In this document: in pieces, positions 1,505 to 12,390 of the stretch
Layout of the letters: each line of letters starts with the position of its first letter
Position numbering within the stretch: the first letter of the stretch is position 1
IMG/VR virus record: IMGVR_UViG_2703718832_000004
DNA length: 34,056 nucleotides
DNA from: a virus
Lineage: Duplodnaviria > Heunggongvirae > Uroviricota > Caudoviricetes
Reading direction: 5' to 3' (one strand)
The notes under the pieces: model-generated
What the model saw: only the letters and a program-made list of their open reading frames with translations
What the model was told of the DNA's origin: nothing
Databases searched by the model: none
Program-made: the position numbers and the translations under genes

Positions 1505-1894
1505 TTACTCCTTTTTCCCCGTATCGGCATCGGGTTCACCATCAAACAGTTTGCCCTGCATCCGATCCAGTTCTTCTTTTCTGACCCGCTTCACTACGCT
1601 GTAGACCCACTGTAGCGAAACACCAAATTTGCGGGCCAGTTCGTGATGGTTGCGTCCGTCAAACTCCAGGAAGATTTCCCGGTCGCGCTGGCTAACCTTC
1701 CAGACCATGCCCATCGGAAAATAGACGTTTTGCCCACCCCAGACCTGCATCATGCGGTTCGCAACAGCCTGACCAATCTGGTCGGCAACTGCGGGTTCGA
1801 TATCAATAATCTCTCGGACGGTCTCAGAAGTGTGCTGTGCCAGTTCTACCAACAGTTCCGGCCCTTTACTACGAAACTGATTCAGGTCGCTCAT
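1505..1894 (-). CDS. Mor/C-family transcriptional activator (Mu middle/late operon regulator-like)
   Basis: ORF 1505..1924 trimmed to ATG at 1894 preceded by GGGAG RBS; C-terminal region (NVYFP...FDGRNHHELARKFGVSLQWVYSVVKR) resembles the Mor/C HTH region of phage Mu; last gene of the minus-strand early arm. Confidence 0.7.
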   Translation of the reverse strand: MSDLNQFRSKGPELLVELAQHTSETVREIIDIEPAVADQIGQAVANRMMQVWGGQNVYFPMGMVWKVSQRDREIFLEFDGRNHHELARKFGVSLQWVYSVVKRVRKEELDRMQGKLFDGEPDADTGKKE

Positions 1895-2319
1895 TGCTTC
1901 ACTCCCGCAGCTCTGCGCTGCCACTTCTTCAGTTTCTCAATAACGCTACTTGCCTGCTCATTGCTGAGCCAGCGTAACGCGCTGATGCCCGTTTCCCGTT
2001 TAACCCACAACGCCAGCGCCTGCTCTGAACAGTCACGGACGGTACCCGCCGCTGCCATTTCAAGCCAAAGCGCACGGATTTTCTTTGACTGGGGATGGTT
2101 ATCCAGCGGTAAGCCGGACCTGGCTTTTCCGGCAGGCTTAATGCGAAAGCCTTTCTTTTTCATGGATTCCAGCACGCGGTTGAGCTGCGGGGTATCCATC
2201 CCTTTGGTTGAGGCTTTGCCGGTCAGACCCTGTAGCATCTGGCGGTAGGTGTCCTCATCCATCTGGAGGTCATTGCGGGCAATATGGATGAGTTGAATAA
2301 GACGCTGCTTAGTCATCAT
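1891..2319 (-). CDS. GemA-like regulatory protein (Mu gp16 family, DUF1018)
   Basis: N-terminus MMTKQRLIQLIHIARNDLQMDEDTYRQMLQ matches the characteristic GemA start; ATG at 2319 preceded by AAGGAG; stop overlaps the Mor start region. Confidence 0.7.
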   Translation of the reverse strand: MMTKQRLIQLIHIARNDLQMDEDTYRQMLQGLTGKASTKGMDTPQLNRVLESMKKKGFRIKPAGKARSGLPLDNHPQSKKIRALWLEMAAAGTVRDCSEQALALWVKRETGISALRWLSNEQASSVIEKLKKWQRRAAGVKQ

Positions 2320-2524
2320 CGTCGCTCCTTTTACCTGCGCCACCGATATAATCGACATATAAAGGAAGCGCTACAGGCCAGCACAGGAACATAACAGCCC
2401 AACTGATCCAGTGTGCGGCACCGTTGTAACGTGAGTAAAAACCTGAGCGGCGGTGCAGTTCAGCAGTACACCACCCCACGAGACCATACCAGAACAGGGC
2501 ACATACAATAGATTCAGCCATCAT
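2309..2524 (-). CDS. small membrane protein (two predicted hydrophobic helices), function unknown
   Basis: 71 aa, hydrophobic segments CALFWYGLVGWC and WAVMFLCWPVALPLYV; ATGA start/stop overlap with the upstream gene suggests translational coupling. Confidence 0.5.
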   Translation of the reverse strand: MMAESIVCALFWYGLVGWCTAELHRRSGFYSRYNGAAHWISWAVMFLCWPVALPLYVDYIGGAGKRSDDDD

Positions 2525-3210
2525 AAGCCACTCCCCAGCTTCCGCTGTTCCTGCCCGCTGACAGGCTGATGCAGGCGGACGTTTTCCCCTTCTCTGTAAC
2601 CGATGTGGCGGGACATGTCCGCGTCACGTGATTTCCCGGCCCCACGGCCCGTGGTTGTGCCTGAGTCAGGGTATTTTTGTTCAAGCCAGAGGCTTGCCAG
2701 CTCCCGTTCTTCGCGGGACATAGCAAATAAATGAACCTCGCTGCGCACGGCCAGAACCCAGCCTTCGGCAAACTTGTCACCACGACTGGTCTTGGTCGTG
2801 TTTTTGATTCTTTTATTCTGCTGTCGAATATAGTTTTTACGGGCCACGATTAATTGTCTGGCCAGTACCTCCCATGTATATGAGGCCAGTTCAACCCGGT
2901 CTTTATTACCGTAAAAACCAACGCTGGGTTTAAAGCCGGAGTGAATAATAGACTTAACGCCAAATGCTACCTGGATAATATCCAGCAGACCCAGCATGTA
3001 TCGCGGCGGGTTAACGCTACCTGCTGCCCAGTAGTTACTGACGCTTTCATCAATATCACTGAGTGCGAGGTCAGCCTGGGTGATGTTATAGGCCTGCATC
3101 AGTTTCTGGGCGCGTTGCAGGGCCAGTGCAGCTTCATGAGGGTTGTCGGATTTCGCCAGCGCCAGCAACTTTTTTAACTTCTCCAGCAGCTTTTCATTAT
3201 TCTGCGGCAT
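2521..3210 (-). CDS. DUF2786-type phage early protein
   Basis: 229 aa; N-terminal motif LLEKLKKLLALAKSDNPHEAALALQRAQKLM is the signature I associate with DUF2786 prophage proteins. Confidence 0.55.
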   Translation of the reverse strand: MPQNNEKLLEKLKKLLALAKSDNPHEAALALQRAQKLMQAYNITQADLALSDIDESVSNYWAAGSVNPPRYMLGLLDIIQVAFGVKSIIHSGFKPSVGFYGNKDRVELASYTWEVLARQLIVARKNYIRQQNKRIKNTTKTSRGDKFAEGWVLAVRSEVHLFAMSREERELASLWLEQKYPDSGTTTGRGAGKSRDADMSRHIGYREGENVRLHQPVSGQEQRKLGSGL

Positions 3211-3493
3211 AAGTCACCCCCAGACGTTCGGCAAGGCGTTCCAGCTTTTTCTGCTTATGAAAGTCAATCATCAGGCCCATCCCGTTGAGGCGGAACTGTT
3301 CAATCATGATTTCAACGTCAGCCAGCTCCCCAGCCAGATCAACTTCATTGCCCAGTCCGTTCATGTTGCGGGCAGCGGCAGCGGCCAGTTCGGCGGCTTC
3401 TTCCATTAGCTTCAGCGCCTGTGCTTCAGGGCCAAAGGTTTTCAGGGCCAGATTGTAGATCGTCGAACGGTTATATAATTTCATGCCTTTCAT
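3197..3493 (-). CDS. MazG-like nucleotide pyrophosphohydrolase family protein (small all-alpha NTP-PPase)
   Basis: Start moved to internal ATG at 3493 (ATGA overlap with the stop of the upstream zinc-ribbon gene). Motifs LMEEAAELAAA and LAGELADVEIMIEQ fit the EExxE ... ExxD helix pair of MazG/HisE-like NTP-PPases. Confidence 0.5.
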   Translation of the reverse strand: MKGMKLYNRSTIYNLALKTFGPEAQALKLMEEAAELAAAAARNMNGLGNEVDLAGELADVEIMIEQFRLNGMGLMIDFHKQKKLERLAERLGVTYAAE

Positions 3494-3678
3494 TGTTTTG
3501 CCTCGCAGGGGATGAACTCCATGGCCGGGACTTCGGTGTAGTAATGCTGGCTGCAGTGCGGGCATACCAGCGTGATGAGGACGGCTGGAACATGGTATTT
3601 GCCAGAGGTAATGACGCTGGCGTCGCTGAACTTCAGAGTGGTGATACCTTTCTTACAGTTGGAACATTTTATGGACAT
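3490..3678 (-). CDS. small zinc-ribbon protein
   Basis: 62 aa with CSNCKKG ... CPHCSQ (two CxxC pairs); GAGGA RBS 7 nt upstream of ATG 3678. Confidence 0.6.
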   Translation of the reverse strand: MSIKCSNCKKGITTLKFSDASVITSGKYHVPAVLITLVCPHCSQHYYTEVPAMEFIPCEAKQ

Positions 3679-3757
3679 GATTTATTCCTCAATGCTGTTT
3701 TCGGCGTGCAGAAGCCCACGGCGCTGACGCCGAAATAAAAAAGAAATTGAATTAAAA

Positions 3758-11097: not shown

Positions 11098-11664
11098 ATG
11101 GGAACGTATTACACACTTGATTCTGCTAATCGTCTGCCTTCGCCTTGCCATGTAATTACCGGAAAATACGAACCTGAAGCGCCTGAGTTAGCCGCCTTCC
11201 TGCATCAGATGTATCCCGATGGTCTTTCCAAGCACGGTCATAACTATCTCTATAACCCCGGCCCTAAAATGGAAGATGACAGCGGAGTCAGCAGAAGTCT
11301 GCTGATCGGTCTGGTGTTTGAGTTAGTTCGCTGTAGCCATTTTCCTGACAAACCCTCCCGCTACCAGTCACTGTTTGCCTGTCAGCATCTGAGTGAAGTC
11401 AGGAAGTTCCGGGGATTACTGGCCGATGAGAGAGGCGAAGAGGAAATCAGAACGGCACCGATATATGAAGTCATCACAGATGAGCCGGTGCATCGCGGAG
11501 ATATGAGGTTATTGAACAGTGATTGCCCGGTGCTGGAACTGTATCACCGGGCCTGGCTTTACTGGTCGGGAGAAGCGGCTCCGGTTAAGACTGGTGAGGA
11601 AGAACCGTTCTGGGAACTGCTGATTCCGCTTCCAGTATTCGTTGGTCGCAGGATAACTGAGTAG
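11098..11664 (+). CDS. hypothetical acidic protein, no recognisable domain (accessory/moron candidate)
   Basis: 188 aa ORF with ATG at 11098; Glu/Asp-rich C-terminal half; located in the accessory stretch between Dam and the lysis cassette. Confidence 0.55.
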   Translation: MGTYYTLDSANRLPSPCHVITGKYEPEAPELAAFLHQMYPDGLSKHGHNYLYNPGPKMEDDSGVSRSLLIGLVFELVRCSHFPDKPSRYQSLFACQHLSEVRKFRGLLADERGEEEIRTAPIYEVITDEPVHRGDMRLLNSDCPVLELYHRAWLYWSGEAAPVKTGEEEPFWELLIPLPVFVGRRITE

Positions 11665-11908
11665 CAGGATTAGGTGCGGCTTTAAATCGTGATGTCGCCG
11701 CCACATTGCCAATCATCATGACGTTGTTTTCTCCGCTGGCGAAATGACTTCTTCTCTCTTCAAGTGCAACCAGCGCGTTTTTCAGTTCTGCAATCGCTTC
11801 GGTTGGGCAACATGCATCCACGCTTAGCGTGTAAGTTTTATTTTTCTCTCCGGATCTGATCCCAAAGAGGAACCCTTTTTTAAAACCGGGCTGTTTCGGT
11901 TCAGTCAT
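11585..11908 (-). CDS. hypothetical protein, no recognisable domain
   Basis: ORF 11585..11968 trimmed to ATG 11908, which has a GGGAGG RBS 9 nt upstream; 107 aa; 3' end overlaps the convergent 188-aa gene by about 80 nt; divergent from the holin gene. Confidence 0.45.
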   Translation of the reverse strand: MTEPKQPGFKKGFLFGIRSGEKNKTYTLSVDACCPTEAIAELKNALVALEERRSHFASGENNVMMIGNVAATSRFKAAPNPATQLSCDQRILEAESAVPRTVLPHQS

Positions 11909-11975
11909 CGTGCTTGCCTCCCCTGTGTTTTGTGTGCAACCATTCTGGCCGCTTCCCTCTGCGAACACTTATAAC

Positions 11976-11999
11976 GCGCTTTAAAATCCGTATCCCGCC
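11976..11999 (+). promoter_or_regulatory. conserved late-operon motif copy 1 (GCGCTTTAAAATCCGTATCCCGCC) upstream of holin
   Basis: Seen directly; shares the core CTTTAAWATCSG with the sites at 25557..25582 and 31374..31399; core starts 61 nt before the holin ATG. Confidence 0.5.
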
Positions 12000-12039
12000 A
12001 CATTTGTGATGCTGTCTCCCACACAACAAGGAGACACTC

Positions 12040-12390
12040 ATGAAAAACCTGAAAAAATTCATTCCCCCTGTTAAAAAGCCCCGCCTCAGCGGCTGGCTGC
12101 TGACCTCTGTGCTGTTGCTCGGCACCATCGGTCTGGTCTCCCCCCAGCAGCTGCCGGTGGTTGTCTACAAGCTGTCGCTCATCACGCTGGCGGCTGTGCT
12201 GGGCTACTGGCTTGACCGTTCGCTTTTCCCCAAAGCCCGCCCCGGTCAGTACCTGAAGCACGATGACAGGCTGATGGCTGATGGTCGCTTCCCCGTCCAG
12301 ACTGGCCTTCACCTGGTCTTTTCCGCTGCGCTAATCCGTCGTGCGCTGATTGTTGCCGCAGTCTGTCTGGCCGTGGCTACGGGGCTGTGA
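12040..12390 (+). CDS. putative holin (three hydrophobic segments)
   Basis: 116 aa with three predicted transmembrane stretches, strong RBS AAGGAGA, immediately upstream of the endolysin. Confidence 0.5.
   Translation: MKNLKKFIPPVKKPRLSGWLLTSVLLLGTIGLVSPQQLPVVVYKLSLITLAAVLGYWLDRSLFPKARPGQYLKHDDRLMADGRFPVQTGLHLVFSAALIRRALIVAAVCLAVATGL

Follow-up and report, generated by a model that had tools for sequence, protein, structure and literature searches.

A BcepMu-type transposable prophage in Escherichia coli with divergent early and late arms and candidate late promoters for a single Mor/C-family activator

Positions 1505-12390 of a 34,056-nucleotide stretch of viral DNA (IMG/VR record IMGVR_UViG_2703718832_000004; the whole stretch is called the window below) carry transposition, repressor and lysis genes arranged on two arms that point away from a shared control region. 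Very probably, these genes form the left third of a transposable (Mu-like) prophage of the BcepMu type, which lies in the Escherichia coli gene yafL and is regulated by the mechanism proposed below. The divergent layout is real and already known, as it is the published defining organisation of BcepMu-type phages.

The early arm is an unbroken minus-strand block running from 9057 to 1505, as delineated by a map of open reading frames (ORFs) and by Pfam, NCBIfam and PHROGs scans. Listed from the control region outward, its genes are:

8833-9057 (9063 if a GTG start is used), minus strand: small helix-turn-helix (HTH) protein occupying the Ner/Cro position; BcepMu gp16 family (NCBIfam, 31.1 bits, a little under the cut-off of 34)
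8531-8836, minus strand: winged-HTH regulator, gp12-like (Pfam/BcepMu match)
7610-8521, minus strand: DUF3102 protein, gp10-like (Pfam/BcepMu match)
5837-7606, minus strand: rve-type DDE transposase (68% identical to BcepMu gp09)
4659-5825, minus strand: AAA+ ATPase, AAA_22 (ExeA/Eha-type), a MuB-analogous transposition partner (Pfam, 4e-20; 60% identical to BcepMu gp08)
4387-4656, minus strand: small ORF
3758-4369, minus strand: DUF3164 protein (45% identical to BcepMu gp05)
3197-3565, minus strand: MazG-like nucleoside triphosphate pyrophosphohydrolase (Pfam/PHROGs)
2521-3210, minus strand: DUF2786/DUF7168 protein (Pfam/PHROGs)
2309-2524, minus strand: small ORF
1891-2358, minus strand: GemA-like protein (Pfam PF06252, 2e-40; 47% identical to BcepMu gp02)
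1505-1924, minus strand: Mor/C-family transcription activator, the last gene of the early arm (Pfam PF08765, 1.3e-42)

The ATG at 9057 agrees with the 74-residue protein annotated in Klebsiella phage KP12, and BcepMu gp08 is annotated as a "DNA transposition protein". A first-pass annotation of the window had placed the whole early arm on the minus strand and had it end at the prophage-host junction; the gene map and the domain scans bear out the strand, and alignments put the junction at 1343, with 162 bp between it and the end of the Mor gene.

The product of 1505-1924 matches PF08765 with 144.6 bits (cut-off 24.9), its residues 19-126 covering profile positions 1-107 of 107, and carries a C-terminal HTH recognised by HTH_23 and HTH_29 at residues 89-121. 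It is 53% identical to BcepMu gp01 and about equidistant from the two Mu activators (Mor, 37 bits; C, 36 bits). Further family members were sought with phmmer, using four family members as queries, and with a four-sequence profile, in six-frame translations of the window, of a complete relative in E. coli strain S12, and of KP12, BcepMu and Mu. The window, S12, KP12 and BcepMu each yielded one Mor/C gene and no second one, and Mu yielded two. The window thus has the single Mor/C-family gene, one ORF in its six-frame translation, that the first-pass annotation had reported.

The two arms are separated by a short control region, and the first gene of the plus-strand arm encodes a repressor:

9058-9146, no strand: divergent control region of 89 bp, with three copies of a 20-nucleotide element ending AATGAATAA (9083, 9106, 9135)
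9147-9557, plus strand: CI-type repressor (Pfam Phage_CI_repr, 5e-19)

The three 20-nucleotide repeats are likely operators. Beyond the repressor and a variable accessory region described below, the late arm comprises:

12040-12390, plus strand: holin (Pfam Holin_2-3, 7e-41; 53% identical to BcepMu gp21)
12387-13121, plus strand: SLT-domain endolysin (Pfam SLT, 7e-15; 62% identical to BcepMu gp22)
within 13003-33430, plus strand: spanin-like gene, TerS, TerL, portal, and Mu F-, G-, I- and T-like head genes
within 13003-33430, plus strand: P2-like sheath, tube, tape-measure and baseplate genes, the arm running past the end of the window

Assignment to the BcepMu type, which the first-pass annotation had suggested, rests on gene-by-gene correspondence with BcepMu (NC_005882). 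BLASTP matched 35 of the 46 window proteins to BcepMu proteins at 28-78% identity, collinear and in the same orientation. On the late arm the matches run collinearly from gp23 to gp51 (28-78% identity), with a Mu-like terminase/portal/head series followed by a P2-like tail cassette that is collinear with gp27-gp51 at mostly 44-78% identity.

The left boundary of the element could be placed exactly:

1343-1504, no strand: prophage left end (attL-type terminus), from the alignment start; in strain S12, too, host DNA adjoins this terminus

Alignments to E. coli copies with other flanks begin at window position 1343, with 5'-TG, and the terminus starts 5'-TGATTAGACTTGAGATAAAT. Within 1343-1504 two repeats occur twice each, TGAGATAA at 1353 and 1376 and ATGGGAAGA at 1386 and 1406; these are probable transposase-binding sites. 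The BcepMu left end, TGAAGAGAGGTGAGATATTT, resembles that of the window, and the terminal sequences of BcepMu and of phage phiE255 are of the same kind (TGA...GAGATA). Positions 1-1342 are E. coli chromosome (yafJ-dpaA-yafL, with yafL partial) and were matched in 5425 of 5426 complete E. coli genomes. The frame of the host gene yafL, which encodes a C40 peptidase, is broken by the prophage, and the frame at 1033-1374 reads into the phage end. None of the complete E. coli genomes in the collection (5426) carries the element at the yafL site. The insertion sites of the copies differ among genomes, being yafL here and the 3' end of dsdX in S12.

The complete relative in E. coli S12 is 35,134 bp long, has TG...CA ends and lies between dsdA and dsdX. 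Its boundaries were fixed by alignment with an uninterrupted dsdX-dsdA region, which revealed a 6-bp target duplication, AATGTG. It is 94-98% identical to the window over the compared segments and 97.7% identical over the left end. At its right end are a recombinase (invertase) gene and alternative tail-fibre genes; no early genes and no Mor/C gene were found there. A right-end C gene or second early region, which the first-pass annotation had suggested looking for, is thus absent from the complete relatives.

The transposase has the catalytic residues D160, D254 and E290, which are invariant in 18 homologues and have DD35E spacing. In MuA the D-to-E spacing is longer, and both proteins fall within the wider DDE/RNase H superfamily. 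The window protein scored 31.9 bits against Pfam rve, slightly below the cut-off of 32.6, and matched IS481 and IS21 models far below their cut-offs. A profile of the 18 homologues searched against the PDB matched retroviral integrase catalytic cores at 6e-6, with no MuA chain among the listed matches. Comparison with MuA gave a BLASTP E value of 2.8 and a profile-profile (hhalign) probability of 0.1%, and no Mu-transposase Pfam domains were found in the protein. The search for a relationship to MuA was thus negative by BLASTP, by profile-profile comparison and in the PDB profile search, and at the level of sequence and profile these comparisons support the view, also taken in the first-pass annotation, that this DDE transposase lies outside the MuA family. 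The BcepMu transposase has been described as unrelated to that of Mu and as a distant member of the Tn552-IS1604 family (PMC2771037; see also PMC2628397).

Four candidate activator-dependent promoters were recognised on the late arm by a shared dyad, nTAr-N6-TTAA, which was searched for with the pattern TAR-N6-TTAAWA:

11972-12013, plus strand: P_lys, candidate (ATAA-CGCGCT-TTAA, 23 nucleotides, -10 GATGCT); holin ATG at 12040
19354-19395, plus strand: P_I, candidate (CTAA-AGCAGA-TTAA, 23 nucleotides, -10 CAGACT); upstream of the protease/scaffold gene, likely start 19426
25554-25595, plus strand: P_tail, candidate (TTAA-TCCCCT-TTAA, 23 nucleotides, -10 CATACT); upstream of the tail gene at 25623
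31370-31411, plus strand: P_W, candidate (TTAA-ACGCCT-TTAA, 23 nucleotides, -10 AATACT); directly upstream of the gpW-like baseplate gene, ATG at 31418

The window has six matches to the pattern where 0.22 would be expected. Four of them, all on the plus strand, fall in the four non-coding gaps ahead of late gene blocks. At each of these four sites a -10-like hexamer stands exactly 23 nucleotides past the proximal TTAA, and none has a -35 hexamer. The dyad would thus cover the -35 region, centred near -43.5 with its proximal edge at about -36, as at Mor/C targets. In Mu, the promoter Pm has a -10 hexamer, lacks a -35 hexamer and carries the Mor dyad at -51 to -36; a related dyad serves C at four late promoters (PMC4287176). 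The Mu mor-gp18 gap, in which Pm lies, contains GTAAAGCCGGTTAA followed after 23 nucleotides by TATCCT.

The sites are retained in KP12, S12, PhiKM (an Escherichia phage) and phiE255: P_tail is conserved in KP12, S12 and PhiKM, and P_W in these three and in BcepMu and phiE255. BcepMu has three matches to the pattern (0.07 expected), in the homologous gaps upstream of gp21, gp32 and gp49, and a 16-mer of P_I, TAAAGCnGATTAAAAG, is also found upstream of BcepMu gp21 and gp32. The pattern was further examined in a survey of one genome per species, which gave 60 loci with the transposase from Enterobacterales, Burkholderiales, Neisseriales and other orders. These 60 other loci contain 82 matches, compared with about 22 in shuffled sequences, and 22 of the matches are directly upstream of a holin gene. 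Across the P_lys footprint in those 22 loci the dyad and the -10 are conserved, and the spacer varies in sequence but is constant in length. A NANNNT hexamer is found 27 nucleotides from the start of the proximal TTAA at 37 of 46 unique late-strand sites; at each of the other offsets between 18 and 37 it is found at 0-7 of the 46.

Two of the candidates bear on gene starts. The longest protease/scaffold ORF begins at 19378, inside predicted P_I; PGAP and the KP12 annotation put the start 16 codons downstream, at 19426, which fits the promoter model, and in BcepMu, too, the annotated gp32 start and the predicted -10 overlap. For P_W, the predicted -10 (AATACT, 31406-31411) ends 6 nucleotides before the gpW-like ATG at 31418, and no Shine-Dalgarno sequence was found upstream of that ATG. 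If P_W starts at the usual distance, the first nucleotide of its transcript would therefore be the A of the ATG, making the mRNA leaderless. The geometry between P_W and the ATG is identical in BcepMu, phiE255, PhiKM, KP12 and S12.

From this arrangement, the following regulation can be proposed. In the lysogen, the CI-type repressor (9147-9557) would bind the three 20-nucleotide repeats and silence the leftward early promoter, by analogy with c/ner of Mu and gp17/gp16 of BcepMu. On induction, a single leftward early transcript from 9057 to 1505 would deliver the Ner-like and winged-HTH regulators first, then the rve-type DD35E transposase and its AAA+ partner, which would perform replicative transposition, then the accessory genes and GemA, and the Mor/C-type activator as its final product. 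Diffusing to the other arm, the activator would bind the dyads (proximal edge at about -36) at P_lys, P_I, P_tail and P_W and recruit sigma-70 RNA polymerase, as Mor does at Pm and C at the four late promoters of Mu. Its position as the last gene of a transcript of about 7.5 kb could provide a built-in delay, comparable with the promoter-distal mor in the Mu early operon. With one activator, the switch from early to late expression would probably occur in one step, in place of the early, middle (Mor then C) and late cascade of Mu.

The first-pass annotation had drawn attention to the roughly 10 kb between the Mor/C gene and the late promoters it presumably controls. The position is as described, but the oddity this implied was an over-reading: for a diffusible activator the distance has no mechanistic consequence, and in the Mu record the late-promoter regions upstream of I, P and com/mom lie about 8-26 kb from the C gene.

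Several points weigh against this reading. The regulatory steps are ones that we infer by analogy with Mu, and the identification of GTAAAGCCGGTTAA with the Pm dyad comes from our own reading of published coordinates, not from a figure; neither PMC4287176 nor a 2025 bioRxiv structure paper spells out the Pm sequence in its text. The pattern was defined post hoc from the window and BcepMu, so that the independent support is that from the other loci and from the -10 phasing, and many of the 60 loci are kin by descent, so their counts overstate independence. The predicted -10 hexamers are weak, and P_W would yield a leaderless mRNA. The dyad pattern is absent from phage JBD25 and from the gap upstream of BcepMu gp41. 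The repressor has no BLASTP similarity to BcepMu gp17 despite its identical position; the immunity modules therefore differ. Finally, the window stops short of the right end of this prophage, by about 2.4 kb as estimated from the S12 relative, and its completeness and its own target duplication are therefore presumptive.

Of the competing explanations, the one that survives best holds that the late arm is not, or not solely, driven by the Mor/C homologue and that the dyad has another purpose, the candidates for a late regulator being the gp12-like winged-HTH protein (8531-8836), a host factor, or read-through from a promoter on the repressor side. This explanation gains from the fact that the link between protein and site is a prediction, from the two additional minus-strand dyads (11032-11046 and 25646-25660) that have no -10 at the right offset, and from JBD25, whose Mor homologue is 40% identical and which has no such sites; a difference of the last kind is nevertheless expected among Mor homologues, because Mor and C themselves do not cross-activate (PMC4287176). 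GC-rich inverted repeats around the -10 in BcepMu and Pandoraea could bind something else. On the other hand, Mor/C is the dedicated family of middle and late activators in Mu (PMC4287176), the spacing from dyad to -10 equals the layout inferred for Mu Pm, and the phasing of the -10 is sharp (37/46). We consider a different late regulator unlikely. Activation of the four late promoters directly by the single Mor/C homologue, replacing the Mor-then-C relay of Mu, is a prediction that we hold with moderate confidence. The more specific proposal, in which a one-step switch without a middle phase acts through four phase-locked dyad promoters conserved between Burkholderia and E. coli, with a leaderless baseplate mRNA made from P_W, has in our judgement about an even chance of being right.

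The inverted repeats just mentioned flank the predicted -10. In BcepMu (locus L003, 11500-11535) the arrangement is ATGCCGTC-CAAGAT-GACGGCAT, and in Pandoraea (L032/L067, upstream of the holin gene) it is ATGCCGCC-GATCAT-GGCGGCAT; between the two, the repeats change on both arms with complementarity preserved. The P_W -10 of the window is also flanked by an inverted repeat, GGGGC-AATACT-GCCCC (31401-31416). A further inverted repeat, GTCTCC...GGAGAC at 12014-12035, follows closely on the -10 predicted for P_lys and spans the ribosome-binding site of the holin gene; its stem is kept and its loop varies among enterobacterial relatives and Salmonella diarizonae, and it may form a 5' hairpin controlling holin translation. 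A hairpin at 19236-19272, GGGGCTGTA..TTTATAAAGGCTTTACAGCCCC, occupies the gap between the G-like and I-like genes, and its core, TTTATAAAGGCTTTAC, is shared with BcepMu (~18733). The corresponding G-I gap of Mu holds an annotated gyrase cut site (17879), and the hairpin could be a terminator or an analogue of that site.

The two minus-strand dyads were not counted as promoters, as neither has an acceptable -10 at the 27-nucleotide offset. One, at 25646-25660, is inside the gene at 25623-25937, about 90 bp from P_tail, and is conserved in KP12, S12 and PhiKM; it may reflect chance and coding constraint, or be an antisense or secondary site. The other, TAAATTGCGTTAATA at 11032-11046, is situated where the Dam and DUF2441 genes diverge, in the gap that separates them, and is conserved in KP12, S12 and the loci L009, L012 and L052. 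By analogy with the control of mom by Mu C, it may tie these accessory genes to the late phase. A perfect hairpin with a 13-bp stem (10961-10992) stands beside it in the same gap. A generic sigma-70 promoter and terminator scan of 1300-13000 gave no enrichment over shuffled sequences and was uninformative.

The accessory region in which these genes lie contains the following:

9593-11908, both strands: variable accessory region (low-G+C stretch 9560-11910; G+C 0.425 in 9001-10000)
between the repressor and methyltransferase genes, plus strand: ORF of 143 residues (phrog_10002)
10084-10854, minus strand: Dam-type N6-adenine methyltransferase
11098-11664, plus strand: DUF2441 protein
11585-11908, minus strand: unannotated ORF of 107 residues with a GGAGG ribosome-binding site, overlapping the 3' end of the DUF2441 gene

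BLASTP found no BcepMu counterparts of the accessory proteins encoded in 9593-11908, and the ORF at 11585-11908 had no family match. The methyltransferase was the sole match of defence-system models to the window. The first-pass annotation had the lysis and structural genes on the plus strand beyond the repressor, as they are; its wording passes over one detail, the Dam methylase gene, which lies within this arm on the minus strand. The window contains no tRNA genes, and Rfam at gathering thresholds gave zero matches in it.

Turning to the layout itself, 49 of the 60 survey loci also contain a late marker. In 48 of these 49 independent loci all late markers are on the opposite strand to the transposase gene, on the far side of the control region, and in all 49 Mor is encoded on the strand of the transposase gene, downstream of it. 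The exception to the late-marker rule is L057, a Methylophilaceae metagenome-assembled genome (10001-20800), in which the early genes are followed by holin and endolysin genes that share their strand, a collinear order like that of Mu; no Mor match was obtained in L057 at E<=1e-5. Since the layout recurs across loci and phages, it is a character of the lineage. For this lineage, divergent arms are the ancestral and normal state, neither a rearrangement nor an artefact.

A second alternative is that two elements lie side by side, a Tn552-like transposon with early-type genes and an unrelated Mu/P2-hybrid prophage. The transposase/ATPase pair is indeed of transposon type, judging from its weak rve, IS481 and IS21 matches, and G+C falls in the 9-12 kb interval. 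The S12 element, however, is one whole unit of 35,134 bp within TG...CA ends and a single 6-bp target duplication, and the unit moves whole to different E. coli sites. BcepMu, phiE255, PhiKM and KP12_2, of equal composition, are deposited as phage records; moreover, the supposed transposon arm carries the phage regulators Mor and GemA, and predicted Mor-type sites are on the other arm. We regard two adjacent elements as highly improbable. Least credible of all, and practically dismissed, is the assembly artefact or strain-specific inversion with breakpoints near 9058-9146 that the first-pass annotation had raised, for which we found no support beyond the unidirectional order of canonical Mu: the same order and orientation occur in KP12_2, Phi06_2974 B, PhiKM, BcepMu and phiE255, which were sequenced independently, recur in a complete chromosome of E. 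coli and hold for 48 of 49 loci that span many genera, and the 9058-9146 junction holds a coherent divergent operator region.

Taken together, these data describe a textbook BcepMu-type organisation, of which near-identical prophages and phage records exist, and the discovery value is accordingly small. The transposase gene is present at >=80% DNA identity in 636 of 5426 complete E. coli genomes (~12%), and for annotation the analysis shows that BcepMu-like, not Mu-like, is the right label for this prophage type, common in E. coli, and gives its exact left terminus. The candidate late-promoter map is a modest, testable by-product for the BcepMu-type lineage, whose regulation is, to our knowledge, unmapped so far; a literature search that did not cover the original BcepMu paper found no published map of these promoters.

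Among known systems, the closest relatives are Klebsiella phage KP12 clone KP12_2 (OM835952) and Escherichia phage Phi06_2974 B (KM389306), both 93% identical to the window in DNA, and Escherichia phage PhiKM (PQ738613), 86% identical; these identities of 86-93% extend over 57-84% of 1400-12400. Together with E. coli prophages such as that of S12, these phages have a gene order identical to that of the window and represent one phage lineage with it. Their accessory and immunity regions are mosaic, and the PhiKM gene set between the early arm and the holin differs from that of the window.

Mu (NC_000929) shares with the window the character of a transposable temperate myovirus, TG ends, a repressor divergent from a Ner-type early gene and, as a candidate feature here, activator-dependent late promoters with an upstream dyad and no -35 hexamer. 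It matches six of the 46 window proteins (Mor, GemA, TerL, portal, F and G). Mu differs in having two activators (Mor then C), a middle phase and a unidirectional order from Ner to mom, as the first-pass annotation had stated. Its ner, A, B, gemA, mor, C, lys and structural genes share one strand, with mor (8781), C (9963) and lys (10480) on the plus strand, leading away from the repressor. MuA and MuB are unrelated in sequence to the window transposase and ATPase, and the tail genes differ. JBD25 (NC_027992), a B3-like Pseudomonas siphovirus, has the divergent layout, as in the window: its bottom strand carries Mor, at the extreme left, its transposase is a homologue 57% identical to that of the window, the interface holds a gene of the BcepMu gp16 family, and the top strand carries the lysis genes and Mu-like head genes. 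It differs in its siphovirus tail module, in its Mor (~40% identical) and in the missing dyad pattern.

In BcepMu itself the gene at the extreme left is gp01 (Mor/C), a bottom-strand gene at 365-736; gp02 codes for GemA, gp08 for the ATPase and gp09 for the transposase, with gp16 and gp17 divergent at the interface and gp21 (holin) onward on the top strand, all as in the window; phiE255 (NC_009237), placed like BcepMu in the genus Bcepmuvirus, has the same divergent layout. A two-cluster organisation with lysogeny control at genes 16 and 17 has been described for BcepMu (PMC2771037; see also PMC2628397). A megablast search with window positions 1400-12400 gave no BcepMu DNA match, and protein identities to BcepMu average ~50%, which suggests that the window element belongs to a separate genus-level lineage; GenBank files its close relative PhiKM under Bcepmuvirus. 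BcepMu gp03, gp04 (HU), gp13-15, gp18-20 and the gp53 acyltransferase have no window counterpart, and the repressor and the accessory region of 9.6-11.9 kb (Dam methylase, DUF2441) are unrelated to BcepMu. BcepMu is reported to lack an invertible tail-fibre system (PMC2771037), whereas complete enterobacterial relatives of the window element (S12, locus L004, 6557-9900; KP12_2, locus L001, 1-2900) have a serine recombinase (invertase) gene beside opposed tail-fibre and assembly genes, a right-end invertible segment that resembles the G segment and Gin of Mu. The element thus departs from BcepMu in its immunity and accessory region, with a Dam methylase gene on the opposite strand, and in the Mu G-like invertible tail-fibre segment of its relatives.

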